A stretch of DNA of 64,000 nt from Parachlamydiales bacterium (lineage in GTDB: Bacteria > Chlamydiota > Chlamydiia > Chlamydiales > SM23-39). Where the stretch lies: positions 4,484-68,483 of the forward strand of contig JBNLAH010000003.1 in NCBI GenBank assembly GCA_050302075.1, read 5' to 3'. Positions 5,483 to 41,938 of the stretch are shown piece by piece; position 1 is the stretch's first letter, and each line of letters begins with the position of its first letter. The notes beneath the pieces are model-generated. The model was not told the origin of the DNA. It ran no database searches and was given only the letters and a program-made list of their open reading frames with translations. The position numbers were made by a program, and so were the translations under genes.

Positions 5483-5485
5483 TTT

Positions 5486-16475: not shown

Positions 16476-16792
16476 AATCCCTACTTTTAAAAAAACCATA
16501 TTAAACAAGCAAAAATATTAGACAAGATTATTTTAATATTGCTTTAAAATTTAACACCTCAAATAAAAATTTGATCACCACTAACTAATTGAAATATAAG
16601 GCTTTAATAAAAAACACTATGTAAATGCCAGGTCTACGCATTAAAAATTTTTTTTAAATTAAACTTAATTACTTGTTTTCAATATGTTAAAAATATTTTT
16701 TTATTAAAATTTATTTTATTGGTGTTTTTAATTATCAATACAGTTAAAATTATTAATTAATAATTTAATCTAAATTAAAAATATTTAAATTA

Positions 16793-22611: not shown

Positions 22612-22620
22612 AAAGCTTAC

Positions 22621-23370: not shown

Positions 23371-24616
23371 TATCTTTCCGATAGTGCGCTCCCTTAAACT
23401 TAATTTTTCTTACTTGCTTATAGGCTTTTTGTCTTGCAGCTTCTAAACTGCTATCAAAGGCACACACAGACAATACCCTCCCTCCAGCTGTCATATATGG
23501 ACTTCCATAACTTCTTTTAGTCCCAGCATGAAAAATATATGTACCCTCTATTTGATCATTCAAACCACTTATCTCAAAGCCGGTCTGGTATGTATTTGGA
23601 TATCCTCTAGAGGCCATTACCACACAACAGGCACTTCTATCATCCCAATGAATCTCTTCATCAAATCTGTTATTGATACATTTTTTCATAACTGAATATA
23701 AGTCACTTTTCAAAAGAGGTAGAACAGCTTGTGTTTCGGGATCACCAAACCGGCAGTTGAACTCTAGAACATTAATAGAATCACCTGAAATCATTAATCC
23801 AGCGTATAAAACACCAACATATTCAATATTATTTTTGATTAAGCCTTGCATAGTTCTGTCGAATACTTTTTCTTGGATCATTTGCAATGTATGTCTATCA
23901 AGAAAGGGAACAGGAGCATATGCTCCCATACCACCAGTGTTAGGTCCCTTTGCAGCTTCATAGAGTCTTTTATAGTCTTGAGCCGGGAGCATCATGTAAG
24001 CTTTCTTTCCATCGCAAAAGGCCATCACAGATACTTCCTCACCAACCAACCTTTCTTCGATTACAATTTTATTTCCAGCGCTAGAAAAGTATTTATCTTT
24101 CATAATCAGGTCAATTGCAAGATTTGCCTCGCTAATCGTGTCACAAACCATTACTCCTTTTCCAGCTGTCAACCCATCTGGTTTAATAACAACACCAAGG
24201 CCTTCTTTAAAGATTTTTAAAAGCTGCTTTTTTGCATCTTTTAAACTGCTAGAAACTATAAATTTGGAAGTTGGGATATTTTCATTCTGCATGAAATTTT
24301 TAGACCAGGCTTTGCTCGACTCAATTATTGCAGCTTTTTTTACCGGCCCGAAAAACTTTAAGTTATTTTTTTTAAAAATATCTGCTATTCCATTAGTTAA
24401 AAACTTTTCACTCGCAGCTACTGTCAAATCAACTGAGAATCTAATTGCAACGTTGCAAACTTGTTCAAAGTCATTTTCATCGACATCTTGTATCGTTTCT
24501 GCAATTTCCTGGATCCCACTGTTGCCTGGCAGACAATATACGGCATGGTCTTGCCTATAAAATGTGTGTGCTAAGGCATGTTCTCTAGCTCCGCTTCCTA
24601 ATATTAGTATTTTCAT
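23336..24616 (-). CDS. purD: Phosphoribosylamine-glycine ligase
   Basis: 426 aa. MKILILGSGAREHALA. ATP-grasp core (VIKPDGLTAGKGV, EFNCRFGDPE). C-terminal GGRVL. Confidence 0.9.
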   Translation of the reverse strand: MKILILGSGAREHALAHTFYRQDHAVYCLPGNSGIQEIAETIQDVDENDFEQVCNVAIRFSVDLTVAASEKFLTNGIADIFKKNNLKFFGPVKKAAIIESSKAWSKNFMQNENIPTSKFIVSSSLKDAKKQLLKIFKEGLGVVIKPDGLTAGKGVMVCDTISEANLAIDLIMKDKYFSSAGNKIVIEERLVGEEVSVMAFCDGKKAYMMLPAQDYKRLYEAAKGPNTGGMGAYAPVPFLDRHTLQMIQEKVFDRTMQGLIKNNIEYVGVLYAGLMISGDSINVLEFNCRFGDPETQAVLPLLKSDLYSVMKKCINNRFDEEIHWDDRSACCVVMASRGYPNTYQTGFEISGLNDQIEGTYIFHAGTKRSYGSPYMTAGGRVLSVCAFDSSLEAARQKAYKQVRKIKFKGAHYRKDIANKTFKLCPS

Positions 24617-24617
24617 C

Positions 24618-25835
24618 TTACCTCAGATTTTTCAGTTTTCTAATAGCTGACATTGCAGCACTTTTAGGATCCATTAACTGAGTAAATATGGCAGGCCAAT
24701 TGCAAAAACCCTCTATAGTTTTTAAAGAACTAAAGTTTTCTGAATGAAAAATGTAGACCACAGGTTCAATTGAATAATTATATTTGGAAATTGCGTCTTT
24801 TAGTGCTTGCCCATCAAATTTAATTTTTATAATTTTATGGGGAATCTGGTAATCATTTAAAGTCCTGCTAATAATTTCATCAGATAAATTCTCATCAATA
24901 CATACTAAAGCAAAATATCCACATATTAGCTTAGCATCGACCAACCTTTGTAAAATCCTCTTTCTTGGACTTACTGTCTCTTGTCTTAGTTTTTCTTTTG
25001 TAATTGACTGAAAGACTTTAAGATATTTTTCCCGCGCCATCTCTTTAATATCTTCAGGCAAAGTAAAGCTTTTTTGTCCTACTTTGAAACCACTTTTAAT
25101 CAAATACTGCCTGATAAACTCTTTACTTTGATGTTCGTATTTTTTTTCATCATAATCTTCTTTAAACCAAAATCTAGACGAATCTGGAGTATGAAGTTCA
25201 TCAATCAATACTAACTTATCACTTTCATCTAGCCCAAATTCATATTTAGTATCTACTAAGATCATATTGCACTTGTCTAAAACTTCTTGCCCCCTTTTAA
25301 ATAAAGCTAGTGAAGTTTTCTCGATTTTTTGAAAAATTTCTTCACTGACAATTTTTCTACTAAGGATTTCTGCTTTGGAAATATCTTCATCATGACCATC
25401 CTCAGTTTTAGTTGTCGGGGTAATTATCGGATATTCAAGCTCTTGGTTTTCTCTCAAATCCTTGGGAAGCCTTAGACCGCACTTTTCTTTTTTGCCTTCC
25501 TTGTAGTCTTTCCAAAGTGATCCTGAAACATACTTTCTAACAATTATTTCAATTGGAATTGCTCTACATTTTTTTACTACCATTACATTAGGGTCAGGAG
25601 AAAAAATCAGGTGATTTTCAATAATGTCTTTAGTTCTTTCAAACCAAAAAAGTGAGAGTTGGGTTAAGGTTTTTCCTTTATCTAAAATTGGATCACTTGA
25701 AACTACATCAAACGCAGAAACTCGATCACTTGCAATCAATATCAGCTTGTTTTGAAAAGTGTAGATATCTCTAACTTTTCCCTTTTTTCTATCACCAAGT
25801 TCAGGTATGAACGATGCTATAATTCCTTCACTCAC
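24618..25835 (-). CDS. purC: SAICAR synthetase (long type) with a C-terminal extra domain of about 115 aa (degenerate PurE-like?)
   Basis: 405 aa. N-terminal roughly 285 aa carry GKVRDIY, IASDRVSAFD and LVDTKYEFG. The C-terminal tail has a PurE-like alternation pattern but lacks the SAHR and AGGAAHLPG motifs (see findings). Confidence 0.85.
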   Translation of the reverse strand: MSEGIIASFIPELGDRKKGKVRDIYTFQNKLILIASDRVSAFDVVSSDPILDKGKTLTQLSLFWFERTKDIIENHLIFSPDPNVMVVKKCRAIPIEIIVRKYVSGSLWKDYKEGKKEKCGLRLPKDLRENQELEYPIITPTTKTEDGHDEDISKAEILSRKIVSEEIFQKIEKTSLALFKRGQEVLDKCNMILVDTKYEFGLDESDKLVLIDELHTPDSSRFWFKEDYDEKKYEHQSKEFIRQYLIKSGFKVGQKSFTLPEDIKEMAREKYLKVFQSITKEKLRQETVSPRKRILQRLVDAKLICGYFALVCIDENLSDEIISRTLNDYQIPHKIIKIKFDGQALKDAISKYNYSIEPVVYIFHSENFSSLKTIEGFCNWPAIFTQLMDPKSAAMSAIRKLKNLR

Positions 25836-25898
25836 TATAGTCTCTGTAAAATAATATTTTTAAAATATTAACCAAAACGTTTTTTAAATCCAGTTAAC

Positions 25899-27503
25899 TT
25901 AATGAGAAAAAAGCCTTTGGCCTGTAAAAATCATTCCAATTTGGCATTCATCTGCCTTTTCAATTACTTCAAAATCTTTTTTTGCCCCTCCCGGCTGCAC
26001 TATCCACTTGATATTAGCCCTATTTGCCGATTCGACACTATCGACAAATGGGAAAAAGCCATCACTTGCTAATACACATTCCCTCATATCTTTACACATT
26101 TTAGCGGCTTTTGGAATAGCTAGAAGCTCCATACTATCAATGCGATTAGGTTGCCCTGAGCCTATCCCAATCGTTTGATAACAACTATCGTTAACTTTTC
26201 TTCCTATAACAATTGCATTGGATTTAACATACTTTGTAGCAATTAAGCTGAATGCTACAAGTTCTTTTAGCTCGTTAGGAAAAACGACTTTTGTTACTAA
26301 TCCCTTCCTAAAGCCTTCCCCTCCAGCAAAAAGATCATCAATATCTTGCATACTAATTTCACTTAAAGGTGTTTGTGAAATCACTCCTCCGCTTATTTTT
26401 TTAAATAACGTTGTTTGTTTTTCAAAGTCAGAGACAATCAACCTAAGCATAGGTTTATGCTCTTTCGCCCATTTTACAAAGGAGTTTGAAAAGTCTTTGG
26501 CAATTATTACCTCAATAAATTTATTTTTTACGACTTCACATAGGTCTTCTTTAACACTTTCATTTATTGCAATCACACTACCAAATGCAGATTTGCTATC
26601 AGCCTCCCAAGCAAGCTCAAAGGCTTCTTTCACTGTTTTTGCAGTAGCAAGCCCACATAAAGATCCATGTTTAACGACTGATACGGATATTTGATCTAGC
26701 ATTTCTTTCAAGTCTATAACAGCATTCGATGCAATTGTTGCATCTTCATAATTGTTATATGACAGCTCTTTGCCTGATATCACTTCTGAATGAGCTATTC
26801 CTTTCTCATCTTTTAACTGGAAAAGCCATCCTTTCTGATCTGGATTTTCCCCATAGCGAAGCTTTTTTTGATTGTAAAAGGTAAAATAGGAAACCAGGTC
26901 TTCTCCTTGCTTAGAAGAAAACTCACTTGCTATCATAGTTTCATACTCAGCTGTTAGCTTAAAAGCTTTTGCAGCCAACATGGATCTAGTCTTTAAGGAA
27001 AGACTCCCTTTAAGGGCTTTTACTTCCTCTAACACTTTAAAATAATCAGAGACAGAAGTAAGCACAGCTACATTTTTATAGTTTTTTGCTGCAGCCCTGA
27101 TTAAGGTAGGCCCCCCGATATCAATAAATTCGATTAGTTCTTCTAAAGGTAGATTTAGATTTTTTGCACTTTTAAAATCATATAAATTACATATCACCAT
27201 ATCAAATGGCTTGATGTCTAATTTGCTTGCCTCCTTTAAATCCTTTGCTTTATCAAGCAAAATACCACCCGCAATTTTAGGGTGAAGTGTTTTGACCCTA
27301 CCTGAAAAGCACTCCTCAAATCCAGTGTAATCTGCTACTGAAGTCGGGTTAAGATTATTTTCCTTTAGGTACTTCAGAGTAGATCCAGAAGCTATTACCT
27401 TTAATGTTGGTTGAGCCGACATTAGCCCTTTAATAAATTTAGCAAGATTATTTTTATCTGTAACACTTGTCAAAATGTTGTAGATTGGGAGGTCTTCCAT
27501 CAA
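25899..27503 (-). CDS. purH: Bifunctional AICAR transformylase / IMP cyclohydrolase
   Basis: 534 aa. N-terminal MGS-like domain (LTSVTDKNNL, RVKTLHPKI, IDIGGPTLIRAAAKN). C-terminal AICARFT domain (ELSYNNYEDA, KHGSLCG, IQPGG). Confidence 0.9.
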   Translation of the reverse strand: MMEDLPIYNILTSVTDKNNLAKFIKGLMSAQPTLKVIASGSTLKYLKENNLNPTSVADYTGFEECFSGRVKTLHPKIAGGILLDKAKDLKEASKLDIKPFDMVICNLYDFKSAKNLNLPLEELIEFIDIGGPTLIRAAAKNYKNVAVLTSVSDYFKVLEEVKALKGSLSLKTRSMLAAKAFKLTAEYETMIASEFSSKQGEDLVSYFTFYNQKKLRYGENPDQKGWLFQLKDEKGIAHSEVISGKELSYNNYEDATIASNAVIDLKEMLDQISVSVVKHGSLCGLATAKTVKEAFELAWEADSKSAFGSVIAINESVKEDLCEVVKNKFIEVIIAKDFSNSFVKWAKEHKPMLRLIVSDFEKQTTLFKKISGGVISQTPLSEISMQDIDDLFAGGEGFRKGLVTKVVFPNELKELVAFSLIATKYVKSNAIVIGRKVNDSCYQTIGIGSGQPNRIDSMELLAIPKAAKMCKDMRECVLASDGFFPFVDSVESANRANIKWIVQPGGAKKDFEVIEKADECQIGMIFTGQRLFSH

Positions 27504-28272
27504 ATTTCTCCTTTAGATAATTTAGTGCATTCTTAAAAATTATTAGCCCTGGGCCATTAGCTGGAACTGGAACATTTTTTCGAATGCAATCTTCTTTTAT
27601 TTCAGTCCAGTTTGGGAGGTTCTCAAAAAATAAAGCAGCTTCAGGATGTGGCATAAGACCAAAAACTAGACCGCTGTCATCACAAACTCCTGCAATATCA
27701 AATAAAGAACCATTTGGATTTTCCTCGCTGTATTTTAAGGCTATCTTTTGATTTGCAAACATAGCTTCAATTGTTTTCTCGCTCTTTGCAAAAAAACATC
27801 CCTCACCATGTCTAATAGGAAGATATAGATTGTCTATTCCTTTTAAGAAGATGCATTTGCTGGAGCAAACTTTAAGCTTCACCCATTTGTTAATAAAATA
27901 ATTTGGGATGTTTGCTTTTAAGGTTGTGAGACCTTCTGTTGAGAAAAAACCAAGTTGAGATAGCACTTGAAACCCATTACAGATACCTAAAATGCACTTT
28001 CCTTCATCAACAAATTCTAAAAGTTTTTCTTTTAAGGAAGACTTGTACTTTAGCTTATTTGCAAAAGCTTTTCCAGCTCCAAGCTCATCACCAAATGAGA
28101 ATCCTCCAGGGAAGACAATAATATGAAATTCTTTCAAATCAATTTTCTCATCTATCAGTTCATTTAAATGAGCATACTTATAATCGACGTCTAGCAAGTT
28201 AAATGCATATGCAGTTTCTCTTTCGCAGTTAATGCCAAATCCAAAAATAATCAACGCTTTAATCGATGTCAT
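27454..28272 (-). CDS. purQ: FGAM synthase glutamine amidotransferase subunit
   Basis: 272 aa. Class I GATase: FPGGFSFGDELG, catalytic GICNGFQVL, MPHPE. The 3' end overlaps the purH start by about 50 nt. Confidence 0.85.
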   Translation of the reverse strand: MTSIKALIIFGFGINCERETAYAFNLLDVDYKYAHLNELIDEKIDLKEFHIIVFPGGFSFGDELGAGKAFANKLKYKSSLKEKLLEFVDEGKCILGICNGFQVLSQLGFFSTEGLTTLKANIPNYFINKWVKLKVCSSKCIFLKGIDNLYLPIRHGEGCFFAKSEKTIEAMFANQKIALKYSEENPNGSLFDIAGVCDDSGLVFGLMPHPEAALFFENLPNWTEIKEDCIRKNVPVPANGPGLIIFKNALNYLKEKFDGRPPNLQHFDKCYR

Positions 28273-31153
28273 TTAAAGTACCCTGCCACACTGATTTTAG
28301 TTTCTCTGTATCTTCTTGAATTATTTTTTCTCCTTGTTTGTCTTTGATGATAAATGTTCTATCTAAAGTAACCTTCCCAACCTTAAATATAGGCTGTTGT
28401 TGCATGACCTTTTCAAAAAGTTCTATATTCTCCTGACTTATGCTAAGCACAAATCTAGAACTCGATTCAGAAAATAAAAGTTCAAGTTCATTTAAGCTTG
28501 AATGAAAATCATCTAGAGAAACTTCAACTCCGAATGAGCTTGAAAAACATGCTTCAGCAAGTGCTACTATAAAGCCTCCATCAGAAATATCGTGACAAGA
28601 TGCGACATAGCCTTTCTGTATACATTCAGATAGCTTTTTATAATATATTCCAGCAACTCCAGCATCAACACTGGGAACTTTGCCTTGAGTTATCTTATTT
28701 GAAGATGCCCACTCGCTCATCATAAGCTCGTCTTTTGTGCTACCCAAAACGTATACAGCATCATCTACTTTCTTAAACTCCATTGAAATAGCCTTTCTGT
28801 AATCAGAAACCTTTCCAATAGCTGAAATTAGCAAGGTGTATGGAATTGATATTTTTTTATCTTTAAATTTATAGTCATTTTTCATGCTGTCTTTGCCAGA
28901 AATAATTGGTAGTTTATATGAGCTACAGATATCAAAAAGTGCTTGATTTGCTTTGATGAGTGCTCCTAGTTTCCTTTTTCCATCAGGAGTTTTATCAATA
29001 TCATAAATTGGATCTGGCCAGCAGAAATTATCTAGTATTGCAATACGCTCAAAATCTGCGCCAACACACAAACAGTTTCTTACTGCTTCATCAACGGCAT
29101 TTAAAGCCATTTCATAAGGAAAATCACTAAATTTAGGGCATATCCCATGTGATATTGCAATAGCTGCCTTAGAGCTAGATCTGGTTTCTAACGGCACTAA
29201 AACAGCAGCATCCGAGGGACCTGATAGGTGGGTAAAAGGTTTGATGATAGTCTGGGCCTGCACTTCATGGTCGAATCTTCTAACAATTTTTTCCTTACTA
29301 CAAACATTTAAAGAAGAAAGTACTTTTGTTAGTTCTTTCAAATAGTTTATCTCTTTTTTATAGCTAATTGGCTCGACCTTTTGATCCTCCCAAATAGCTT
29401 CCAATTCAAGCTTAGGATGCCCAAAATGTAGAAATTTAAGATTAAGTAAGGCCACTGTCTTCGCTTCATACAAAACATGAAAATAACCACTGTTTGTAAA
29501 CTTGCCAACGACAGAAATTTCTAGTTCATGAAAGTCTGCAAGCTCTTGAAGACTTTTTAAGTCTTTAGCTGCTACAGCAAGCGTCATCCTTTCTTGTGAC
29601 TCGCTGATTAAGATTTCATAGGCCTTAATGTTTTTTGCCTTCAACTTTGCTTTATCTAAGTGTATTTCACATCCATTAGACAACAAAGCCATCTCACCGA
29701 TCGAAGATGAAAAGCCTCCAGCGCCATTATCTGTAATTGCACGGTATAGCCCAAAGTCTCTGGCATTTATAATAAAATCAGATAACTTTTTTTGGGTAAA
29801 AGGATCTCCTATTTGAACAGCTCCAATTGGGCTTTTCTCATGAAACTCTTCAGATGAAAATGTAGCTCCGTGAATACCATCTTTTCCTGTCCTACCACCT
29901 GCTATGATGATTAAATCATTAGCCTCAACCATCTTCTTTTCAGTTGGCTGATTATTGATTCTCTTAGGTATGATTCCAATACTCCCACAGTATACAAGCG
30001 GCTTTCCTAAGTAATTCTCATTAAATACAATTGATCCATTAACTGTTGGGATTCCAGATTTATTTCCACCGTGCTCAATTCCCTTTACTACTCCTTCAAA
30101 TACGCGCTTAGGATGTAAAATTTTTTCAGGCAAAGGTTTTTGATAATCAGGAGGAGCAAAACAAAAAACATCGGTATTTGCAATAACACGAGCGCCTATC
30201 CCTACTCCCAAAATATCTCTATTAACTCCCAGTATCCCTGTCAGAGCGCCACCATAAGGATCTAATGCCGATGGACTGTTATGAGTTTCCACCTTAAAGG
30301 CAACATTATATTTCTCATTGAACTCAATAATACCAGCATTGTCGCTAAATACACTTACTAACCAATCAATACTTTTAGAAAGCTGAGTGGTCACGCTTTT
30401 AATATATGTTGAAAATAACGAATCAATAATCTTGGCTTCACCATTTTCAATAAAAGTTATTGAAGCGTTGAATATCTTATGTTTACAGTGCTCACTCCAG
30501 GTCTGGGCGATAGCCTCCAGTTCAACGTCAGTTGGAAAAGCTTTAAGACCTAGTACCTTGCGCTTTTCTTGAACATCTTCAGATTCATAATATTTTCTGA
30601 TTGTTTGCATTTCATTTAAGTTAAGAACTAAATGTCTTTTTGCGCTTAACTCCTCAAGCTCAGCATCGCTTATATCAAGTGAGATATAGTTAAAAATATC
30701 TGTATCTTTTTTAGAGATCTCAAAAATCTCTATTACTTCATTTGCTATAAATTCCTTAACTATTTTCTCAACTAGTTTGAAACTGAGCTGTCCTTTAATA
30801 AGATAAATAGTAGAAGTGCTTAAAAATTCTTTTTCAGAAAACCTTTCGTTTAGGAAATCTTCAATTGCAATTTTAGCAGTGTTAGCTAAATTGTCATTTA
30901 CCCCAGGTAGGTATTTTACGCTGACTTTCCAGTCATAGTCTTGCTCGTCCAAAGTATTTAAGCTTTCATTGAATTGATCTGACAAGACTTCTTCTTTGAT
31001 TATTTTTTTTTGCTTTTCTGTCAGCTCTTTATAGATGTGAAATCCATCAAATATAGAAATATCATGTAAAAGATGAGTACAGTATTTATTAATATTCTTA
31101 ATAACTACAGATGAATAAGCCCTATCCTTTGACACGTAAATGTTTTGCATCAA
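28259..31153 (-). CDS. purL: FGAM synthase subunit PurL with N-terminal PurS-like extension
   Basis: 964 aa. WSEHCKHKIF, VETHNSPSALDPYGGA, and the duplicated AIR-synthase-related fold. About 200 aa lie N-terminal to the SEHCKHK motif (see findings). Confidence 0.9.
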   Translation of the reverse strand: MMQNIYVSKDRAYSSVVIKNINKYCTHLLHDISIFDGFHIYKELTEKQKKIIKEEVLSDQFNESLNTLDEQDYDWKVSVKYLPGVNDNLANTAKIAIEDFLNERFSEKEFLSTSTIYLIKGQLSFKLVEKIVKEFIANEVIEIFEISKKDTDIFNYISLDISDAELEELSAKRHLVLNLNEMQTIRKYYESEDVQEKRKVLGLKAFPTDVELEAIAQTWSEHCKHKIFNASITFIENGEAKIIDSLFSTYIKSVTTQLSKSIDWLVSVFSDNAGIIEFNEKYNVAFKVETHNSPSALDPYGGALTGILGVNRDILGVGIGARVIANTDVFCFAPPDYQKPLPEKILHPKRVFEGVVKGIEHGGNKSGIPTVNGSIVFNENYLGKPLVYCGSIGIIPKRINNQPTEKKMVEANDLIIIAGGRTGKDGIHGATFSSEEFHEKSPIGAVQIGDPFTQKKLSDFIINARDFGLYRAITDNGAGGFSSSIGEMALLSNGCEIHLDKAKLKAKNIKAYEILISESQERMTLAVAAKDLKSLQELADFHELEISVVGKFTNSGYFHVLYEAKTVALLNLKFLHFGHPKLELEAIWEDQKVEPISYKKEINYLKELTKVLSSLNVCSKEKIVRRFDHEVQAQTIIKPFTHLSGPSDAAVLVPLETRSSSKAAIAISHGICPKFSDFPYEMALNAVDEAVRNCLCVGADFERIAILDNFCWPDPIYDIDKTPDGKRKLGALIKANQALFDICSSYKLPIISGKDSMKNDYKFKDKKISIPYTLLISAIGKVSDYRKAISMEFKKVDDAVYVLGSTKDELMMSEWASSNKITQGKVPSVDAGVAGIYYKKLSECIQKGYVASCHDISDGGFIVALAEACFSSSFGVEVSLDDFHSSLNELELLFSESSSRFVLSISQENIELFEKVMQQQPIFKVGKVTLDRTFIIKDKQGEKIIQEDTEKLKSVWQGTLNDID

Positions 31154-31158
31154 TATCC

Positions 31159-32103
31159 CTATTTCGAAAAAACATTTCCTATTTTTATGTATTTAAGACA
31201 GCTATCAAATTGCATAGTCTCAAAAACACTTTCCGATACAATAAATGTGTAACCAATACCCATGTTAAATGTCTGATACATCACAGTATCACTAACTCCA
31301 CCCTTAACTTGGATCCACCTAAATATCTTCGGAATGTCCCAGCTATAATTTAGATCTACAAAAAAACCATCTGGCAAGGTTCTTTGAATATTATCAACCA
31401 AACCGCCTCCAGTAATATGAGCCATTGATTTAACACTGTACTTAGTTAAAGTTCTCTCTACATCGCTTACATAAATTCTAGTAGGATGTAATAGACATTG
31501 CCCTAAACTATCACCACCTAAAGGCTCATCTAATGACCTTTGGTTGTCGTAAATAATCTTTCTAATTAAAGAAAATCCATTGCTGTGAACTCCATTTGAT
31601 GTAAGCCCTACAACTACATCTTTACTTTCAATATTTTTCCCATTTATAACTGAATCATTTTGGACAATTCCAACACTAAAACCTGCTAAGTCATACTCTT
31701 TTTCCTTATAAAGTCCAGGCATTTCAGCTGTCTCTCCTCCTAAAAGAGTACACTTTGCCATTTCACACCCTTTTTCAATCCCTTTAAGAACTTCTTTAGC
31801 AACATCTATGTCAAGCTTGCCACAAGCAAAATAATCTAAAAAAAATAAAGGGGTAGCCCCCGTTGTGATAATATCATTGACACACATTGCAACTAGATCA
31901 ATTCCTACCGTTGAATGCTCGTTTAACTCAAATGCAAGTTTCAACTTTGTACCAACTCCATCGGTTGCAGCTACCAAAGATTGATTCTTATTAATAGGAT
32001 ATAGGCCAGAAAAGCCTCCTATATGGGGAAATTTTTTTTGTAAGAAGGAAACAAATTCATTTCCTAAATTAACGTCTACACCCGCCTCTTTATATGATGG
32101 CAT
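31159..32103 (-). CDS. purM: Phosphoribosylformylglycinamidine cyclo-ligase (AIR synthetase)
   Basis: 314 aa. SYKEAGVDV, ATDGVGTKL, NDIITTGATPLFFLDY, GGETAEMPG. First gene of the pur operon. Confidence 0.9.
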   Translation of the reverse strand: MPSYKEAGVDVNLGNEFVSFLQKKFPHIGGFSGLYPINKNQSLVAATDGVGTKLKLAFELNEHSTVGIDLVAMCVNDIITTGATPLFFLDYFACGKLDIDVAKEVLKGIEKGCEMAKCTLLGGETAEMPGLYKEKEYDLAGFSVGIVQNDSVINGKNIESKDVVVGLTSNGVHSNGFSLIRKIIYDNQRSLDEPLGGDSLGQCLLHPTRIYVSDVERTLTKYSVKSMAHITGGGLVDNIQRTLPDGFFVDLNYSWDIPKIFRWIQVKGGVSDTVMYQTFNMGIGYTFIVSESVFETMQFDSCLKYIKIGNVFSK

Positions 32104-32160: not shown

Positions 32161-32218
32161 GTATTTTTTAAAAAAATAAATTTACAATTTTCAGGAAAAG
32201 GCTTTAATAAAGATTTAT

Positions 32219-32247
32219 GAAAAAGAGCGCAGTAAAACCTGCGCTCT
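32219..32247 (-). terminator. Rho-independent terminator after the Cys-rich lipoprotein gene
   Basis: Minus strand AGAGCGCAG-GTTTTA-CTGCGCTCT followed by TTTTT, 13 nt after the stop at 32260. Confidence 0.7.
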
Positions 32248-32259
32248 TAATTAAAAGAA

Positions 32260-32814
32260 TTATTTTTCGTTAAATCTTCTTGGATCTCGACGGTTTTGTT
32301 CACTTAACTCTGTATCTCTTCCAAAAAGTTCGTTTCTAGTATACTGTCTGCCGTTTGGTCCACAAGAACTGCAACAGCTATCACATGGATCGCAGCAATC
32401 AGGTTCACAGCAATCTCCACAACCGCAATCTCCACAACCGCAATCCCCACAGCCGCAATCATCACATCCACAATCATCACATGGGTCACAGCAGTCAGTA
32501 CATTCTTTTTTCTTTGGCTGCATTGGAGCATAGATTCCTGTTGGCTGATTTGTCTCCTCACACCTTGGGTTGCACCATTCACAGTCAGATTTTGGGCAAC
32601 AGTCTTTTGGGCAACATTCGTCATCATTGTACCTTTTTCTCATAGGCATCTTAGTATCACTATCTTTCATCATTGGCTGAGACTCTCTCATTTGAGATCC
32701 TCTCATTGATTGTCTTTGACTGCTTTTGCCATCTTTGGTTGGCTGGCATGCCATAGTTAAAAAGCTCATCGCAAAAACTGCGCAGAAGAGCTTTATAAAT
32801 AACTTTTTCTTCAT
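32260..32814 (-). CDS. Extremely cysteine-rich putative lipoprotein with (CGCGD)n repeats
   Basis: 184 aa. Signal peptide ending LTMAC (lipobox-like). A Met/Arg/Gln-rich spacer. Then about 27 Cys in about 90 residues (my manual count), including DCGCDDCGCGDCGCGDCGCGDCCEPDCC. Has its own terminator. Confidence 0.6.
   Translation of the reverse strand: MKKKLFIKLFCAVFAMSFLTMACQPTKDGKSSQRQSMRGSQMRESQPMMKDSDTKMPMRKRYNDDECCPKDCCPKSDCEWCNPRCEETNQPTGIYAPMQPKKKECTDCCDPCDDCGCDDCGCGDCGCGDCGCGDCCEPDCCDPCDSCCSSCGPNGRQYTRNELFGRDTELSEQNRRDPRRFNEK
32410..32484 (-). repeat. 15-bp in-frame tandem repeat (about 5 units, the first two identical)
   Basis: Plus-strand units: gcaatctccacaacc x2, then gcaatccccacagcc, gcaatcatcacatcc, acaatcatcacatgg. 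They encode the CGCGD/CGCDD repeat. Confidence 0.85.
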
Positions 32815-32985
32815 GATTTCTCCTCGTTAGTAAAAACTTTCATTTATCACTTATTTTTGCAAATTATCTCTAAAATATTTTTTTGTCTAGTAGGTTATAT
32901 AAAAAAATTTAAAACTATTCCTCGTTGAGAACTTATTTTAAAAATGTTACTATTTGTGGAATTAATAATTATTAAACGGTTAATT

Positions 32986-33831
32986 ATGATAAATAAATTG
33001 TTTAAATCTTTGATTTTAATTTTATTAACGCTAGCTCCTTTATTATCAATCTCAAGTAAAGAAGCCGACAAAAAGTACTCAAATACAGCACTTTTTACTA
33101 CAGAAAAAAGCTTTTCAAACTTCGGGTATTGGGAACATATAGATCTTACTAAGCTTAAAGCATCTGATAGAATTGAGAGTCAAAAAAATTTATACCGTTA
33201 TGCTCTAGACCACCTAGAATTATATGATGACGACAAAGTTTTAGAGGTAGGCTCTGGCAGAGGACAAGCAGCTCAAATAATTCATGATGAATATACAGCT
33301 GACAAATATGTTGGCCTAGACGCCTCTAAAAATAATACAGAAGCTGCAAAAAAACTAAATAGCCAACTACTGGAAAGCGAAAAGACTTACAAATATATAG
33401 TAGGAAAGGCTGAGAATTTACCCTTTGATAACACCTCATTCTCTAGAATACTCTCAGTTGAGGCTCCTAAAAATTTTTACCCTTTTGAGAGATTTATAAA
33501 TGAGTCTGAAAGAGTTTTAAGACAAAATGGTAAAATCGTAATCGCATCAATCTTTGCTCAAAATGGTGATAGTATTAACTCGTTAAAGGATCTTAAGAGT
33601 TCCATTACTTCAATAGATAAAGCTCATAAAGCTTTAAAAGCAAAAGGATTTGTAGATATCCACATTGAACCAATTGGTCAGTATGTATTTGATGGATTTG
33701 ATAAATGGTCTAAAAGTTCTAATGAATATAAAAATCACCCTATGCAAATCTGGAAAAAAGCATATGATGAAGGATTGATCAATTACTATGTTATTTCAGC
33801 ATACAAGCCAGTCGAGCTGATTCGAATGTAA
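32986..33831 (+). CDS. Class I SAM-dependent methyltransferase with N-terminal signal/anchor sequence
   Basis: SAM motif I VLEVGSGRGQ, and a motif resembling post-I/II (YVGLDAS, NLPFDNTSFSRILS). I place the start at the Met at 32986 (MINKLFKSLILILLTLAPLL); the ORF track starts at 32944. Confidence 0.7.
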   Translation: MINKLFKSLILILLTLAPLLSISSKEADKKYSNTALFTTEKSFSNFGYWEHIDLTKLKASDRIESQKNLYRYALDHLELYDDDKVLEVGSGRGQAAQIIHDEYTADKYVGLDASKNNTEAAKKLNSQLLESEKTYKYIVGKAENLPFDNTSFSRILSVEAPKNFYPFERFINESERVLRQNGKIVIASIFAQNGDSINSLKDLKSSITSIDKAHKALKAKGFVDIHIEPIGQYVFDGFDKWSKSSNEYKNHPMQIWKKAYDEGLINYYVISAYKPVELIRM

Positions 33832-33889: not shown

Positions 33890-35215
33890 ATGAAAGCAAG
33901 TGCAATACTATTAATGGCTGGAAGCGGTAGTAGATTTAAGAAATCTTATCCCAAGCAATTTTATAAACTGCTTGGTACTCCAGTCTACATCCATACTTTA
34001 AAACAATTCATAAAATCAGCCATTTTTCAAGAAATTATTCTATGCTGTCATTCTGATTACATTGATGAAGTAAAAAAAGAAACAGAGCAATATCAAAATG
34101 TAAAAGTAGTATCTGGAGGGAAAACTAGACAGCAGTCGAGTTTTAATGCAATAAATGCCTGCAGTGATGACTGTGAAATAGTCTTAATACACGATGCAGT
34201 AAGACCATTTGTTAGCACAAAAATAATAAGAGATAACCTTACCCTAGCACAAAAATACAAAGCTGTTAACACCTGCATTGAAAGTACTGATACTTTAGTA
34301 AAAACCAGTGATAAAATAAAAATTGATAGCTTCCCTGACCGTAAGAGCCTTATGCGAGGACAAACCCCACAAACGTTCGAATATTCTTTAATAAAAAAGG
34401 CTCACTTAAATGCAATTAAAAAGAACATAACAAATGCAACTGATGATTGTCAGTTAGTCTTTATGCTCCCTCACCCTGTTTACATCTGTAAAGGTGAAGA
34501 GAAAAATATAAAAATCACAACCCCTTTTGATATTAATATCGCAAAACAGATCCTTCAAGAAGCAGAAATATCTTTAGAGCCTTCAGATAAATCATTTGAA
34601 GGAAAAAAATATATCTTGATTGGGGCTAGTGGAGGTATTGGGAAACACATACATAATCTTATTGAACAAAACGAAGGGTTTGTTATTCCTGTATCTTTAA
34701 AGAACTCAAAATACAAGATGGATCTAACAAAGAAAGAAAGCATTAAAAGTGTTTTAGAAATGATCCATAGCAAATACGGCCCTGTAGATGGGTTAATTAA
34801 CTCTGCAGGTCTTTTACATAAGTCGCCGCTTTCTGTTTTAACAGATTCAGAAATTGACAATCTAATTAATATTAACCTTACAGGTGTCATATATTGTTGT
34901 AAGTTTACAAAAATAAAGCGACATGGACACATCATTAACGTTTCATCTTCTTCTTACGTAAAAGGAAGAAAGAATCATAGCATTTATTCAAGCTCAAAAG
35001 CTGCACTAGTTAATTTCACTCAAGCATTAGCGGAAGAAAGAGAAGATTTATATATCAATTCTGTAGTTCCCCAAAGAACCAATACCAATATGAGAAGATC
35101 CCATTTCTATGATGAAGATCCTAATGAACTATTATCGCCTGATACCGTAGCTTTGGAAATTATCAATATATTAAAAAATGAACAAAGCGCAAAAGTATTC
35201 GAGCTATTCATATAA
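33890..35215 (+). CDS. Bifunctional IspD/TarI-like cytidylyltransferase + short-chain dehydrogenase (CDP-ribitol synthase-like, Bcs1/TarIJ architecture)
   Basis: 441 aa. N-terminal domain: ILLMAGSGSRF, GGKTRQQS, IHDAVRPF, RGQTPQTF. C-terminal domain: ILIGASGGIGK (TGxxxGxG-like) and YSSSKAAL (YxxxK). Confidence 0.7.
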   Translation: MKASAILLMAGSGSRFKKSYPKQFYKLLGTPVYIHTLKQFIKSAIFQEIILCCHSDYIDEVKKETEQYQNVKVVSGGKTRQQSSFNAINACSDDCEIVLIHDAVRPFVSTKIIRDNLTLAQKYKAVNTCIESTDTLVKTSDKIKIDSFPDRKSLMRGQTPQTFEYSLIKKAHLNAIKKNITNATDDCQLVFMLPHPVYICKGEEKNIKITTPFDINIAKQILQEAEISLEPSDKSFEGKKYILIGASGGIGKHIHNLIEQNEGFVIPVSLKNSKYKMDLTKKESIKSVLEMIHSKYGPVDGLINSAGLLHKSPLSVLTDSEIDNLININLTGVIYCCKFTKIKRHGHIINVSSSSYVKGRKNHSIYSSSKAALVNFTQALAEEREDLYINSVVPQRTNTNMRRSHFYDEDPNELLSPDTVALEIINILKNEQSAKVFELFI

Positions 35216-35524: not shown

Positions 35525-37690
35525 TCAACTTACAAGCTTTTTTTGCTTTTGATGGTTGTTAAAAGGTTTATAATAGCCTTGGTATTGACTAAAAAAGCCC
35601 CTTAGTAAAGAAGGAGCTAAGTCCATTAATACCATAAAGTCTTTTAACTTTTGCTCAAATAATGGCAACCTTTCATAATCTAATTTTTTATACTCGCATA
35701 AAAAATAGATAGCAGCTGACAATGCTATCATATCAAAGTAACTTTGTTTACTCGGCTCTATGTTAAGCCTACTCTCATAAATTTGCATACAACACCCTAA
35801 AAACTCATTTAACTCATAGCCTTCTATTTTCGATGCATCTGTTAATTTTTTGTTTTTAGTTTTTACATAAACAAAAAAAGCACCGAGTAAACACTTGTTA
35901 GTTATTTGAAAAAGTGCACTCTTATCACTTTGTAGCATCGCAATTATTTGTAATTTTGATTCAACATAAATACTAAGCGAATTTAAATTAACATGATTTG
36001 GATGAAACAAATAAATCATAATTTCATATGCAAAAGATGAATTTAAGAATTTAGATTCAGCATCTAAAAGCGTTTCATTTTGAGCTAGTTTCTTTGAAAT
36101 CTCATCTTTAATTGCCTTAGCCCTTTTTAAAAGATTTTCATCGATTAACATCAGGGCCGTCTTAAAATCAAAGATACTGGCTATAAGTTCCACTTCTTTT
36201 GAATTAGAAACCATTTGACCTTGCGCTGAACTAGAGGTTATAGCTGATGCAGAAGGCACATCTACATTCTGAATTTCTAAGGTGTTGCTATCAACTTCAA
36301 TGGATTTTGATATGGAAGATATTTCTATAGAACTTGCGAGTGAGTCTAACCTTTTGATAGCTTCAATGGTATCTTCATCTAACTCAACTTCCTGAGATAT
36401 TATTTTAATATTCGACAAAACATCTTTAAAATAATTAGTTTCAACTCTTTGTAGATAAATTCCCTCTAATTGCTCTTTTGTCATATTATCTAACTCATCT
36501 GCAGTTATATCTTTTAATCTTTCACCTTCTTTGCAGCGAGCTTGATTAAGCCTAAAAGCTAGAAAAACCTCTAAACACGAGAACTTAATATAAATTTTTA
36601 AAAACTTTGGTAGGAATTTTTTATAATAAGCATAGTCTACGCAATCCTTTTTTTTATTTTTAAAATAAAAACATATAAGAGCCAAAGAGCTGTTAGATTT
36701 TATAAATAACGCAGGATCTGGTGTTAGAATGGGAAGTGGCTTTGAACCGCTCTCTTTACTATATTTGAAATAAAAAGCTCTTACTAAAGTCCATTCTGAT
36801 AGTATGCTTTTAAAAAGATGTATCAAATTTCTTTGATGAGGTAATTTTTTAAATTCTTTAATTGTAGCTTCTAGCTGCTTTAATGAAACATCAGGCAAAT
36901 AAAGATCATATAATTTTCTATCCAATTCATACATCTCATTGATATTTAAAAGGTTATATTTGCATAAAAAGTAAATAGATGCTGCAACCGCTTGTACTTG
37001 AATATAATCAATTTCATCTTCTTGCATGCTAAATCTTTGGTTATAGATTATTTGAGATGCCCAAATTAATTTATGGATATCTATCGTGTCTAAGATAAAA
37101 CAACCATCAACATCTTCAAAAATTTGAATTGCAATTAAATAAGCTCCAAATAAAACCTTTGGAGGGGGCCATTTCGGATCTTTTTCAACAGCAAAGTCTC
37201 GGCTTTCTTTTGACCTCAACATTTTCTTTATTTTTGTTAGGTCTTTAAACAGCCTATTATGGTTCATAACCGATTTAATCTGCCCGCGAGAATAATAGAG
37301 CATCATTGCATCATAAAAAGATAACGAGATCATGAATTTTTGTTGCTCTTCTGTATAGTTACCCTGACTTTTCATTTTAATGCTATTAAGCATTATGAAA
37401 GATTTTTGAGCTAAAATACGATCTTCAGAAAACAGCGCAACTTTAATATCTAATAATTTTGAGCAACTTTTTAACTGCCTACTAGTACCAGTTAAAGATG
37501 TAATATCTATAACCTCTCTAGATTCCAAAATTGTTTGAAAATCTTTTTTATTATTTCTAAAGTCTAATAAGTTAGAAAAAACATCTTCAAAAATTTTACT
37601 TGCTTTAGTTGGAAGAGTTGGAATAGCCACCTTTGGAAAATCTTCCAATTTAATGTCTTCACTATTTTCAACCCTCTGAATACAATTCAT
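35525..37690 (-). CDS. Large hypothetical protein with internal two-module duplication
   Basis: 721 aa, no signal peptide. The N- and C-terminal halves share blocks (AVAASIYFLCKYNLLN versus ALSAAIYFLCEYKKLD), separated by a Ser-rich linker. Confidence 0.5.
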   Translation of the reverse strand: MNCIQRVENSEDIKLEDFPKVAIPTLPTKASKIFEDVFSNLLDFRNNKKDFQTILESREVIDITSLTGTSRQLKSCSKLLDIKVALFSEDRILAQKSFIMLNSIKMKSQGNYTEEQQKFMISLSFYDAMMLYYSRGQIKSVMNHNRLFKDLTKIKKMLRSKESRDFAVEKDPKWPPPKVLFGAYLIAIQIFEDVDGCFILDTIDIHKLIWASQIIYNQRFSMQEDEIDYIQVQAVAASIYFLCKYNLLNINEMYELDRKLYDLYLPDVSLKQLEATIKEFKKLPHQRNLIHLFKSILSEWTLVRAFYFKYSKESGSKPLPILTPDPALFIKSNSSLALICFYFKNKKKDCVDYAYYKKFLPKFLKIYIKFSCLEVFLAFRLNQARCKEGERLKDITADELDNMTKEQLEGIYLQRVETNYFKDVLSNIKIISQEVELDEDTIEAIKRLDSLASSIEISSISKSIEVDSNTLEIQNVDVPSASAITSSSAQGQMVSNSKEVELIASIFDFKTALMLIDENLLKRAKAIKDEISKKLAQNETLLDAESKFLNSSFAYEIMIYLFHPNHVNLNSLSIYVESKLQIIAMLQSDKSALFQITNKCLLGAFFVYVKTKNKKLTDASKIEGYELNEFLGCCMQIYESRLNIEPSKQSYFDMIALSAAIYFLCEYKKLDYERLPLFEQKLKDFMVLMDLAPSLLRGFFSQYQGYYKPFNNHQKQKKLVS

Positions 37691-37803: not shown

Positions 37804-38875
37804 TTAGAAATCGAATCTAGCACCAACATTTAAACCGTGAGACAAGACTGATCTTCTCCAGTTAAATAAATCTGTTGGGACTGTTGCATCTGTTGAAACA
37901 TTGTACTCTTCTAAGTAAGAGACAAAGTTTGGCCAGTAGTGCAATTCATATCCAAGCTTTAGTCCAAAATAGTAACAGCATTTACAAAAATGCTTTCCCC
38001 AAGTAAGACCTAAGCCTGCTTGAGCATTCATTTGGAAATCTGTGTCTTTATAGTTTTGAGTAAGTGTTGATGTACTTGCAAAGTTAGTTGCAGTATCAAA
38101 CAACGTTGACTCATCTCTGATTCTATAGTTTTTTTGCCCGATCAATGCTGAGAATGAAGAGTTTCCATATAAGCCGAATCCCCAACATAAATCAACATTC
38201 ATGTCCATACCAGTGTGTAGACCAACACCTAAATTAAAATGATGGTTTACATCAACATGGTGTGTTTGTGGGAAACCTACAACAGAGTTCTCTGCTACAT
38301 AGTCAACTCTTAAATCTGTTTTTACCCAAGCAAACCTAACACCTACAAATGGGCTAAAAGAATATCTTGAGCATGTGTATACTGTATTAAAATCAAAGTC
38401 CAACATTCTCATTTTGAAGCGGTTTTTTGCACTAGCAGAAAGACTTAAAAGTCCTGTTGTGTCCCCTTCAAATGGATCGTTTAAAAGCCAGTAAGCAGAT
38501 ATTGAATTGCTGATATTAGAACTTGATGTCACGTTCCCAACTGAAAATGAATCTGTTCCATCAGTGCTATACTGGGTGTACTTTGCTGTTCCAAAAGAGC
38601 AGTTAGAAAAGTAAACTCCCAAAGCTACTCTAAATCCTGAATCAGCAGACAAAGGCACATTATGGATATTTGAGCTATATGTATTTATAGCATTTCCTGT
38701 CCCTATAGAAAATGGCGGAACTCTGTACCTTTCACTTGCATATGGTGTTAAGCTATATGTTTTAAGGTATAAATACTCACCTTCCACAAATGCCCAGCCA
38801 CATTTCACAGGTAGTGGAAGACCAAAACAACATCTTTTGTAATTTTCATCACAGCCACACCTTGGCTCATAACAT
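37804..38875 (-). repeat. Direct repeat copy 1 (about 1.04-1.07 kb, near-identical to 40559..41630)
   Basis: By-eye alignment at a constant offset of 2755 bp. I found three mismatches between 37804 and about 38840, then progressive divergence to about 38875. Confidence 0.85.
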
Positions 38876-39036
38876 AAACTGCTACTTTTACTAGCTTGCC
38901 AGTCTTGCATATCAACTTTATCGTTGTTTTTTGACCTTGCTGATATGTCAAATTCAAAATCATTATCTTCTGCAAAACCGAAAGTCGCAAAAAACAATCC
39001 AATAGCTAGAGGAACTTTAAAAAACTGTTTCATCAC
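37804..39036 (-). CDS. Cys-containing beta-barrel outer membrane protein, MOMP-like family (paralog A)
   Basis: 410 aa. Signal peptide (...FGFA/EDN). CxC and CC motifs (EPRCGCDENYKRCCFGLPLPVKCGW). Alternating beta-strand pattern. C-terminal GARFDF with terminal Phe. Start is GTG at 39036 or ATG at 39033. Confidence 0.7.
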   Translation of the reverse strand: MMKQFFKVPLAIGLFFATFGFAEDNDFEFDISARSKNNDKVDMQDWQASKSSSLCYEPRCGCDENYKRCCFGLPLPVKCGWAFVEGEYLYLKTYSLTPYASERYRVPPFSIGTGNAINTYSSNIHNVPLSADSGFRVALGVYFSNCSFGTAKYTQYSTDGTDSFSVGNVTSSSNISNSISAYWLLNDPFEGDTTGLLSLSASAKNRFKMRMLDFDFNTVYTCSRYSFSPFVGVRFAWVKTDLRVDYVAENSVVGFPQTHHVDVNHHFNLGVGLHTGMDMNVDLCWGFGLYGNSSFSALIGQKNYRIRDESTLFDTATNFASTSTLTQNYKDTDFQMNAQAGLGLTWGKHFCKCCYYFGLKLGYELHYWPNFVSYLEEYNVSTDATVPTDLFNWRRSVLSHGLNVGARFDF

Positions 39037-39130
39037 CTTTTGTAACCTTATTTCTTAAATTTTACGCTTGGTTTAAGTTACTTAATATAAAGTAAAAATT
39101 TCAATAAATTATTTCCTTTAAACAAACTCC

Positions 39131-40396
39131 TTAAAAATCAAAACGAATTCCTGCATTCAGGCCATGTGAAAATACAGTTCTTTTCCAAACGAAAGTATCT
39201 CTTGGAATCGAATTAGCACCTACTGCATTAGAATTTAAATAAGTTAAAAAATTTGGCCAAAATATTGCTTCATAGCCGACCTTGATACCGGCATAATAAG
39301 CACATTTACAAAAATGAGCTCCCCAGTGGAATCCACATCCAAAAGAACCCGAAAATTGAACATCTGTTTGTTTATAATTTTCTGTTACTCTTGAACGAAC
39401 CGGGCCTGAATCATTTAGTAAAAGGATATCGCGTATTCGAAAGTTTCTTTGTCCAACTATAGCAGAAAATGATGACGAAGTATAAAAATTCAAATTCCAG
39501 CATAGATCTAAATTCATATCAATTCCAGTATGAAACCCAGCTCCTAAGTTAAAATGCTGGCTGACATCAATATGGTGGCCTTGTTCAAAGTCTAAAGTTG
39601 GATCAATATATTTATAATCTACGAATAAATCTGTTTTAACCCATGCTACTCTAGCCCCAACAAATGGATTAATTGAAAGATTAGAGCAAGTGATTGCTCT
39701 GTAGAAATCAAAGTCTATTACCTTCATCCTGAATCTATTGGCAGCATTACTGTTTACTTGGGTGACATTATTTAAATCAGTTGGGCCACCTCTTGTCGCA
39801 AGCAGCCAAAAAATAGTTAGACCAGATCTATTGGGAGCCGCCGCTGAATCTATATTGTCTACAGAAACACTGGCCTTTCCATCTGTTTCAAATTGGGTAT
39901 ATTTGGCTGTAAAGTAAGAGCAGGAAGAAAAATATATTCCCAAGCATGCTCTATAACCTGAATTAGCATCTAAAGGGACAAATAAATCCTCTGAGTCATA
40001 TTCAGTTGCACTTCCAATCGTTGGAGGAGGAACCTGCCTCCTAACTCCTAAAAATGGAGTTAAGCTATATGTTTTAAGGTATAGATATTCACCTTCGAGA
40101 AAGACCATACCACACCTTGCCGGTAAAGGCAGTGGGTAACAACACCTTGTATAAGGCTCACAGCAGCTTTTTGTCATACATAGAGAAGATTCTTTTTGCT
40201 TAGTTTGTTTTAATTTTTTTTCACTTCTTTCACTGCTTTCCTTTTTTTTAACATCTTCAATTGAAAAAAAACCTTTGTCTGACAAGTCTGCATTCTCAGT
40301 CAGTGTTTTATCCGGAGCTTTATTTTCTACTTTGATATCGACTTCTTCTGCAAAAATTGCACTAAAAAAGAAAAATGCTGTAAATAGTGTTCTCAT
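39131..40396 (-). CDS. Cys-containing beta-barrel outer membrane protein, MOMP-like family (divergent paralog B)
   Basis: 421 aa. Signal peptide, Lys/Glu/Ser-rich N-terminal region, CCEPYTRCCYPLPLPARCGM, shared EGEYLYLKTYSLTP block, C-terminal GIRFDF. Confidence 0.7.
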   Translation of the reverse strand: MRTLFTAFFFFSAIFAEEVDIKVENKAPDKTLTENADLSDKGFFSIEDVKKKESSERSEKKLKQTKQKESSLCMTKSCCEPYTRCCYPLPLPARCGMVFLEGEYLYLKTYSLTPFLGVRRQVPPPTIGSATEYDSEDLFVPLDANSGYRACLGIYFSSCSYFTAKYTQFETDGKASVSVDNIDSAAAPNRSGLTIFWLLATRGGPTDLNNVTQVNSNAANRFRMKVIDFDFYRAITCSNLSINPFVGARVAWVKTDLFVDYKYIDPTLDFEQGHHIDVSQHFNLGAGFHTGIDMNLDLCWNLNFYTSSSFSAIVGQRNFRIRDILLLNDSGPVRSRVTENYKQTDVQFSGSFGCGFHWGAHFCKCAYYAGIKVGYEAIFWPNFLTYLNSNAVGANSIPRDTFVWKRTVFSHGLNAGIRFDF

Positions 40397-40513
40397 AGCT
40401 ACCTTTAGTATTTAAAAAAGACAAATACTAAAAGTAAGTTAGGGGTCAATTTATTTCAAAGAAGATCTTATAATTTTTATTTTAAACTTATGAGAAAATT
40501 TATTAGACAAAGA

Positions 40514-40542
40514 CAAAAAGGGACCCTAAGAAAAAGGGTCCC
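40514..40542 (-). terminator. Rho-independent terminator after OMP paralog C
   Basis: Minus strand GGGACCCT-TTTTCTT-AGGGTCCC followed by TTTTT, about 16 nt after the stop at 40559. Confidence 0.7.
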
Positions 40543-40558
40543 TATGCTTAAAGTTACG

Positions 40559-41818: not shown

Positions 41819-41938
41819 AAAAATCCTCCTCGTTTTCTTTCCGTTTATCATAAAAAGTAATTTTATCAAGAAAAAAAATAAAAATAATTTGATATTTTTG
41901 AAAAAAATAAAATTAAAACTACAAAAAGATAATCTAAT

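Follow-up and report, generated by a model that had tools for sequence, protein, structure and literature searches.

A gene for a protein of extreme cysteine content was analysed within a 64,000-nucleotide stretch of DNA from a Parachlamydiales bacterium (contig JBNLAH010000003.1; hereafter the window), the genomic context being readable across this 64-kb window and its 10-kb flanks. The gene is a complete open reading frame (ORF) on the minus strand at 32260..32814, with an ATG start and a TAA stop, and its immediate neighbours are purM and a divergent methyltransferase gene. The ORF list, the translation and the orthologues all support its assignment as the coding sequence of a 184-aa hyper-cysteine precursor of predicted lipoprotein type. 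Cys accounts for 15.8% of the 184-aa protein, against a background of 1.6% in the window's 52 other ORFs (binomial P ~6e-20). Of the 29 Cys in the precursor, one (C11) belongs to the signal peptide, one (C23) to the lipobox and the remaining 27 to residues 67-151. Sequence comparison confirmed that the product represents an orphan family of predicted hyper-cysteine lipoproteins, built from one fixed and one expandable Cys module and restricted to one small uncultured chlamydial clade.

The precursor is modular along its whole length. A predicted signal peptide (residues 1-22) and lipobox L-T-M-A-C (residues 19-23), assigned with a PROSITE-type lipoprotein rule, occupy 32746..32814 (minus strand, as are all features of the gene given here). 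They are followed by a Cys-free basic spacer of 39 aa (residues 24-62; 32629..32745), delimited by composition, Tandem Repeats Finder (TRF) and the predicted local distance difference test (pLDDT), which is rich in M, R, Q, S and K (10 K+R, 6 Met) and predicted to be disordered (pLDDT <50). Orthologue alignments define both Cys module A (residues 63-86, CCPKDCCPKSDCEWCNPRC; 32557..32628), with 7/7 Cys invariant among all orthologues, and a conserved Cys-free linker (residues 87-104, PTGIYAPMQPKKKE; 32503..32556). Cys module B (residues 105-151; 32362..32502), assigned from composition, alignment and Cys counts, contains 20 Cys (43%) and 13 Asp/Glu in 47 residues and lacks hydrophobic, basic and aromatic residues. 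The product ends in a conserved charged C-terminal tail (residues 152-184, GRxYTRxExFGRD…NR.D.RR; 32263..32361), recognised from invariant alignment columns. The mature protein would comprise 162 aa (~18.2 kDa, pI 4.7, ~17% Cys as a whole), with Y, W and F in its long Cys-free regions, no His, and five pentamers of the CCxPx/CCPxx type. AlphaFold2, supplied with a 4-sequence family alignment, predicted no fold (mean pLDDT 42.9, predicted template modelling score 0.13), the only helices outside the signal peptide being placed with low confidence in the tail (residues 160-183, pLDDT ~54). A preliminary description of the locus had listed a 184-aa ORF, about 27 Cys within about 90 residues, a Met/Arg/Gln/Ser-rich spacer of about 40 aa and the string DCGCDDCGCGDCGCGDCGCGDCCEPDCCDPCDSCCSSC; all of these agreed with the present counts, the ORF being intact at start and stop and the string occurring exactly in the product.

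Relatives of the protein were few. A word-indexed search of 5.8 billion proteins returned only 4 proteins, all of its own family: P0001, which is identical and comes from NCBI assembly GCA_050304555.1, and three orthologues whose identity is 59-64%. A fifth and closest orthologue was found by a metagenome DNA scan (L050:1100-1648, 182 aa, 74% identity), and the orthologues were recovered from environmental metagenomes. As the five orthologues are syntenic, the dN/dS ratio (nonsynonymous to synonymous substitution) against the closest orthologue is 0.11 at a dS of 0.85, and a promoter/5' untranslated region (5'UTR) block and a terminator are conserved, the ORF is, on this comparative evidence, a real gene under purifying selection. 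Beyond the family, a profile hidden Markov model search of 1.84 billion representative proteins recovered its own cluster with no outside relative, and a scan of GTDB species-representative genomes with the family alignment likewise recovered no relative. No Cys-rich ORF was seen at the syntenic place in the chlamydial metagenome-assembled genomes (MAGs) located among GTDB representatives with a neighbouring gene, the IspD-short-chain dehydrogenase (SDR) fusion, as query. The window protein matched no Pfam or NCBIfam family at E <=10, a Pfam scan of the other four orthologues gave only a sub-threshold signal-peptide match, and a PDB sequence search gave chance-level ZZ-finger matches only (best E 0.06). 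The impression of an unrecognised sequence style in the preliminary description was thereby borne out by the word-indexed and profile searches, and the homology check it had proposed, against OmcA, metallothionein and other characterised families, found no homologous family in Pfam/NCBIfam. Three further candidate identities were rejected: a precursor of a ribosomally synthesised and post-translationally modified peptide, given the lipoprotein signal and the absence of a maturase neighbour; a thioredoxin-like CxxC enzyme, given the absence of a fold or family match; and the Srp/CrpA 15-kDa protein, which is a hydrophobic membrane protein.

Export of the product was assessed from its N-terminus, which reads MKKKLFIKLFCAVFAMSFLTMA up to the predicted cleavage point and then C (residues 1-23 in all), C23 being the predicted lipidated first residue; the segment MACQPTKD is invariant in 5/5 orthologues. 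The PROSITE PS51257-type rule, implemented as a regular expression, calls for K/R in the first 7 residues, an uncharged h-region, the pattern [LIVMFWSTAG]2-[LIVMFYSTAGCQ]-[AGS]-C and a Cys at position 15-35, and 5/5 orthologues conformed to it, with the Cys at 23 and 3 K/R among the first 7 residues. At -3 the lipobox has T/A/I, which departs from the classical L-[AS]-[GA]-C, and instead of being lipidated as predicted the precursor might be cut after …MA by signal peptidase I. A weak, sub-threshold Pfam match to the colicin lysis lipoprotein signal was also obtained for the L050 orthologue. The hyper-cysteine protein is very probably exported and lipid-anchored, as the lipobox-like LTMAC noted earlier had suggested.

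The Cys core is encoded by tandem repeats. TRF detected a 15-bp repeat at 32410..32475 (4.4 copies, 88% matches) and, when run on the gene strand, a 15-bp array over nt 333-405 (32410..32482; 4.9 copies, 89%), which was also followed in a codon listing. The array encodes DCGCD-DCGCG-DCGCG-DCGCG-DC and contains two identical units at 32410..32439 (GCAATCTCCACAACC x2), matching the earlier count of about five units with the first two identical. In-frame duplication of 15 bp also occurs outside the Cys core: at 32678..32707 (minus strand; gene nt 108-137), within the basic spacer, a second tandem pair of 15-bp units (x2, 86% matches) specifies SMRGS/QMRES.

The orthologues, whose lengths range from 182 to 226 aa, can be aligned residue by residue across module A, linker and tail, whereas module B differs in every lineage. 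The window module is built on the 15-bp unit (x4.9, 89%) and its protein has 27 non-lipid mature Cys; the L050 module lacks the (DCGCG)3 run (as judged by alignment, TRF not having been applied; 26 Cys); P0002 carries a 36-bp unit (x2.5, 96%; 25 Cys), P0003 only weak short periods (26 Cys) and P0004 a 51-bp unit (x2.8, 94%; 44 Cys). Subtracting the 7 invariant module-A Cys from each mature count leaves 18-37 Cys in module B, and their number and order differ in each orthologue, the mature counts being odd or even without pattern (27, 26, 25, 26, 44). Each of the repeat units has a length in bp that is divisible by 3. As even the closest orthologue, L050, lacks (DCGCG)3 and the units are lineage-specific, these comparisons support a core that has been repeatedly rebuilt by in-frame duplication and deletion with its C/D/G/P/S composition retained, the apparent lability being on an evolutionary scale, between species. 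Within strains, sampling amounted to two or three contigs per species only. The 4 contigs carrying P0003 are 100% identical over the gene plus 1.5 kb, probably represent the same population or data and are hence uninformative on repeat variation, and no length variant at >=90% identity was present in the protein collection, in which the 90% clusters hold one sequence each. The earlier proposal that the array might expand or contract in frame was thus upheld for differences between species, with units of 15, 36 or 51 bp, but nothing shows slippage within a strain.

The expression signals of the gene were assigned from RNA folding and cross-species conservation. Downstream, an intrinsic-terminator-like hairpin and U run occupy 32218..32248 (minus strand); the hairpin itself (32223..32248) has a 10-bp GC-rich stem (AAGAGCGCAG/CUGCGCUCUU) and a 6-nt loop, with a dG of -18.6 and a z score of -3.5. 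An equivalent hairpin and T run directly follow the stop codon in 5/5 orthologues, their sequences differing while the structure is kept. Upstream, a five-locus DNA alignment revealed a nearly invariant block (32815..32897, minus strand), the ~85 nt 5' of the ATG being almost unchanged in the window, L050, L002, L003 and L004 despite saturated synonymous sites. It contains a putative sigma-66-type promoter, TAGACA (32889..32884), 17 nt and TAATTT (32866..32861), followed by a ~45-nt 5'UTR and the Shine-Dalgarno sequence GAGGAG (32825..32820). This putative promoter agrees at 8/12 consensus positions, which is below the scan threshold, and a simple consensus promoter/terminator scan made no call on the gene strand, the terminator having been passed over because its T run is short. 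The near-invariance of the block suggests a tightly constrained promoter, operator or leader, and possibly a late-gene control site. Given the conserved upstream block and the post-stop hairpin, it was therefore concluded that a monocistronic gene with strongly constrained expression signals is supported, in line with the terminator and single-gene arrangement proposed in the preliminary description.

The surroundings of the gene bear on both its host and its possible partners. In all five orthologues it occupies the same place, divergent from a CMAS-like methyltransferase gene beyond which lies the IspD-SDR fusion gene; on the short L050 contig only the methyltransferase and purM are visible, while the longer contigs continue with a large ORF of no known family, two or three PF05150 porin genes and a photolyase gene. 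Three paralogous PF05150-type porin genes, recognised by Pfam and by their Cys positions, lie in tandem at 37804..41869 (minus strand) in the window, so that the distance of about 5 kb from a Cys-containing outer membrane protein family given earlier was accurate. Each porin has 12-13 Cys, and 10 Cys columns, arranged in CGC / CC / CKC(C) clusters, are common to 3/3. The porins are syntenic with the hyper-cysteine gene in 3/4 other lineages, those in which the flank was available, the L002 contig ending before them. PF05150 (Legionella_OMP) was the only family in the porin Pfam table, with no other family, including chlamydial MOMP, appearing there.

The host was placed from other genes of the window. 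Among species-representative genomes, the IspD-SDR protein matched best to a Candidatus Anoxychlamydiales MAG, at 50% identity over its full length, and to a Chlamydiales MAG, the latter having the gene order IspD / frr-tsf-rpsB / penicillin-binding protein in common with the window. As tsf and rpsB show identities of 55-73%, the comparison therefore indicates a distant lineage within Chlamydiota. The window also contains sctJ of type III secretion (PF01514), at 3770..4639 in a type III secretion cluster (2721..8042, plus strand) that supports the chlamydial assignment; the sctJ product, too, is a lipoprotein, its lipobox being the canonical LTGC.

Several other features of the neighbourhood were recorded. 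The CMAS-like S-adenosylmethionine-dependent methyltransferase (32944..33831, plus strand), the constant divergent neighbour in 5/5 loci, has an N-terminal hydrophobic leader or anchor (…LILILLTLAPLLSISSKE…). The fusion of an IspD cytidylyltransferase with a short-chain dehydrogenase (33890..35215, plus strand) is conserved across the clade, and its architecture presumably resembles that of CDP-ribitol synthases of the TarI/TarJ or Bcs1 type; this fusion and the genes of a dTDP-sugar (rhamnose-type) pathway at 14069..16508 jointly hint at a chlamydial surface glycopolymer of unusual kind. Between the IspD-SDR gene and the porin cluster, a 721-aa ORF (35525..37690, minus strand) that lacks an evident signal peptide and matched nothing in Pfam has syntenic counterparts of 854-885 aa in L003 and L004, and could encode an effector or an envelope-associated protein. 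Directly downstream of the hyper-cysteine gene, a purine de novo run (19968..32103, minus strand) has Pfam domains for purF, purN, purD, purC, purH, purQ, purL and purM; to our knowledge Chlamydiaceae have no purine de novo pathway, and the cluster is not at the corresponding position in L002 or L003. A DNA photolyase gene (41939..43336, minus strand) beside the porin cluster is conserved in several clade loci and would be unexpected if the clade were a strictly dark-sediment anaerobe.

Given the absence of a hydrophobic core together with a variable, odd-or-even number of Cys, a fixed set of intramolecular disulfides is unlikely. Two chemistries were considered to remain, intermolecular disulfide cross-linking and metal-thiolate clustering, and the former is favoured with a confidence that falls a little short of even. 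The preference arises because the host phylum has a disulfide-based envelope, Cys-cluster porins are encoded nearby, the Omc repertoire is variable, and the protein shows pentamers and repeat changes like those of keratin-associated proteins (KAPs). Cys clusters such as those of the porins have been described in Waddlia and Chlamydiaceae as essential to cross-link Omc proteins with porins (PMC2878342), and OmcA is a small Cys-rich outer-membrane lipoprotein within the disulfide-linked complex (PMC2811131). Both OmcA and OmcB are missing from Simkania and Rhabdochlamydia, the set of envelope Cys proteins thus varying among chlamydial lineages (PMC6490308), and the high-sulfur keratin-associated cross-linkers combine CCXPX repeats with in-frame variation in repeat number (PMC4929423). 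On these grounds, and at slightly less than even odds, the hyper-cysteine protein is tentatively read as a functional counterpart of OmcA without homology to it, which would serve the outer-membrane complex as a node for disulfide cross-links; that it is lipidated, sits in the outer membrane and forms disulfide cross-links, and with which partners, are all features that we infer.

Under the cross-linking hypothesis, the precursor would be exported by Sec, cleaved, lipidated at C23 and tethered to a membrane, most likely the outer membrane because the +2 residue is Gln and not Asp. The basic, disordered spacer of ~40 residues would position the two Cys modules in the periplasm, where the fixed module A (7 Cys) and the expandable module B (18 to 37 Cys by lineage), neither with a hydrophobic core, would act as multivalent thiol/disulfide nodes. 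Intermolecular disulfides would form while the extracellular stage is oxidised, both among modules and with the Cys clusters of neighbouring porins, an OmcB-like layer being perhaps a further partner; these cross-links would stiffen the outer-membrane complex, and reduction after host entry would loosen it. Turnover of the core by in-frame duplication and deletion would be expected because function would depend on Cys density and not on exact geometry. Several observations weigh against this proposal. Homology to OmcA was absent, no omcB adjoins the gene, and three unrelated genes between it and the porins, along with its own promoter, make the linkage to them loose. Furthermore, the Asp content of the core is extreme (13 acidic residues in 47), unlike that of the one OmcA sequence compared, and would suit the binding of cations.

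Metal-thiolate clustering would make the product an exported, lipid-anchored protein of metallothionein type, whose reduced Cys/Asp core would enclose Zn(II), Cu(I), Cd(II) or Fe in clusters of thiolates (and carboxylates). This was judged unlikely, as was, to the same degree, the corresponding role in periplasmic metal buffering or storage, or in protection from thiophilic metals in sediment habitats. The CC, CxC and CxxC motifs, the high Asp content of the core and a module B with 43% Cys and no aromatic or hydrophobic residue would all suit such a protein, but the Cys positions of module B are not conserved, and cluster-forming metallothionein families usually conserve theirs. The Cys/Asp core would also become extremely negative once thiolates formed. 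Met-rich stretches in the spacer would likewise suit it, but these Met residues are not conserved and the protein has no His. The lack of a predicted autonomous fold is as would be expected of a protein folding only around metal, and metallothioneins do fold upon metal binding (PMC7558416); however, the five orthologues matched 0 metallothionein families (Pfam/NCBIfam, E <=10), and no PDB relative was found. Csp1 offers a precedent for an exported Cys-based copper store, but it is a folded four-helix bundle exported by the twin-arginine translocation (Tat) route, and SmtA and MymT are treated as cytosolic metal binders (PMC7558416), whereas the hyper-cysteine protein is predicted to be a Sec/lipoprotein substrate. 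Of the neighbouring genes checked for their families, none encodes a metal transporter or regulator. The more specific proposal of a first exported, lipid-anchored bacterial metallothionein, a periplasmic Cys/Asp 'metal sponge' with a capacity tuned between lineages by in-frame expansion (18 to 37 Cys), is doubtful.

A periplasmic sacrificial thiol/redox buffer or sulfane-sulfur carrier, in which tethered thiols would absorb oxidants, electrophiles or polysulfide without any structural role, was considered improbable. An exported, tethered and very Cys-rich protein that tolerates changes in Cys number, with orthologues from environmental metagenomes, would be consistent with it, but no redox enzyme adjoins the gene, and the strictly invariant module A and tail suggest specific interactions over bulk chemistry; we know of no precedent for a buffer of this type. 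The possibility of a chance ORF over a low-complexity, GC-rich repeat with no functional protein, to which the missing annotation and domain and the overlapping 96-107 aa ORFs in other frames might point, has next to no probability and was excluded because of conservation, since the five orthologues retain frame, signal peptide, module A and tail at a dN/dS of 0.11, their repeat units are all multiples of 3 bp, and conservation extends to the Shine-Dalgarno sequence, the promoter block and the terminator.

The infectious stage of chlamydiae is stiffened by a disulfide-linked protein shell and not by a thick peptidoglycan wall, and knowledge of the components of this shell comes almost entirely from Chlamydiaceae and a small number of amoeba symbionts. 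Were the cross-linking hypothesis true, the role of the small Cys-rich lipoprotein would have been invented or replaced independently, by an unrelated and far more Cys-dense protein with a Cys load tunable through repeat expansion; were the protein a metal binder, it would be an unprecedented exported metallothionein. On either account it would provide a specific marker and antigen candidate for the clade, and protein engineering would gain a Cys/Asp repeat that is both natural and compact, although the organisms are uncultured, which is a practical limit.

Comparison with known systems places the protein closest in kind to OmcA/CrpA, the 9-kDa protein of Chlamydiaceae. Both are small exported proteins of a chlamydial host with a lipobox and very high Cys content, in both the motifs of CC and CxxC type open with the pattern CC…CC…C…C…C, and both have a presumed partnership with Cys-bearing porins in a disulfide-linked envelope. 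There is, however, no detectable homology. Neither the window protein nor the four orthologues matched PF03503 (Chlam_OMP3; gathering score 25 bits), on which a C. trachomatis OmcA sequence, used as a control, scored 128.9 bits, and an hhalign comparison of the family alignment with OmcA aligned only residues 1-17, the signal peptide, at 11.9% probability. The preliminary view of an OmcA-like logic in a differing sequence was supported by these results. The hyper-cysteine protein is also twice the size (162 vs ~70 mature residues), has a 40-residue basic spacer between the lipid anchor and the first Cys module, an Asp-rich repeat core and a conserved charged tail, and is encoded by a monocistronic gene that does not adjoin omcB.

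The likeness to metallothioneins (bacterial SmtA/BmtA and MymT, and eukaryotic MT) lies in the dense CxC, CC and CxxC motifs, a core without aromatics and the absence of a predicted ligand-free fold. Unlike them, the protein matches no family, is predicted to be exported and lipid-anchored, is ~18 kDa and strongly acidic, and has Cys positions that vary between orthologues. KAP2/4/5, high- and ultra-high-sulfur proteins of mammalian hair, likewise have >30% Cys in a repeat core, CCxPx-type pentamers and Cys/Gly/Ser-type repeats, and they undergo in-frame changes in repeat number between paralogues and alleles while serving as intermolecular disulfide cross-linkers of a protein matrix (PMC4929423). 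This is an analogy only, without homology, KAPs being eukaryotic cytoplasmic proteins that are weakly basic and not lipidated. The Cys-rich OmpA/porin proteins and the 'extended omc family' of Waddlia and Protochlamydia are beta-barrels or OmcA/B-like, unlike the hyper-cysteine protein, which had no relative outside its own cluster among the 1.84 billion representatives; with them it would nevertheless exemplify the lineage-specific elaboration of the chlamydial Cys-rich envelope set (PMC2878342). These comparisons favour regarding the hyper-cysteine protein as a novel variant of the small Cys-rich envelope lipoprotein type of chlamydiae, one without homology to the known ones and with a function that we infer.

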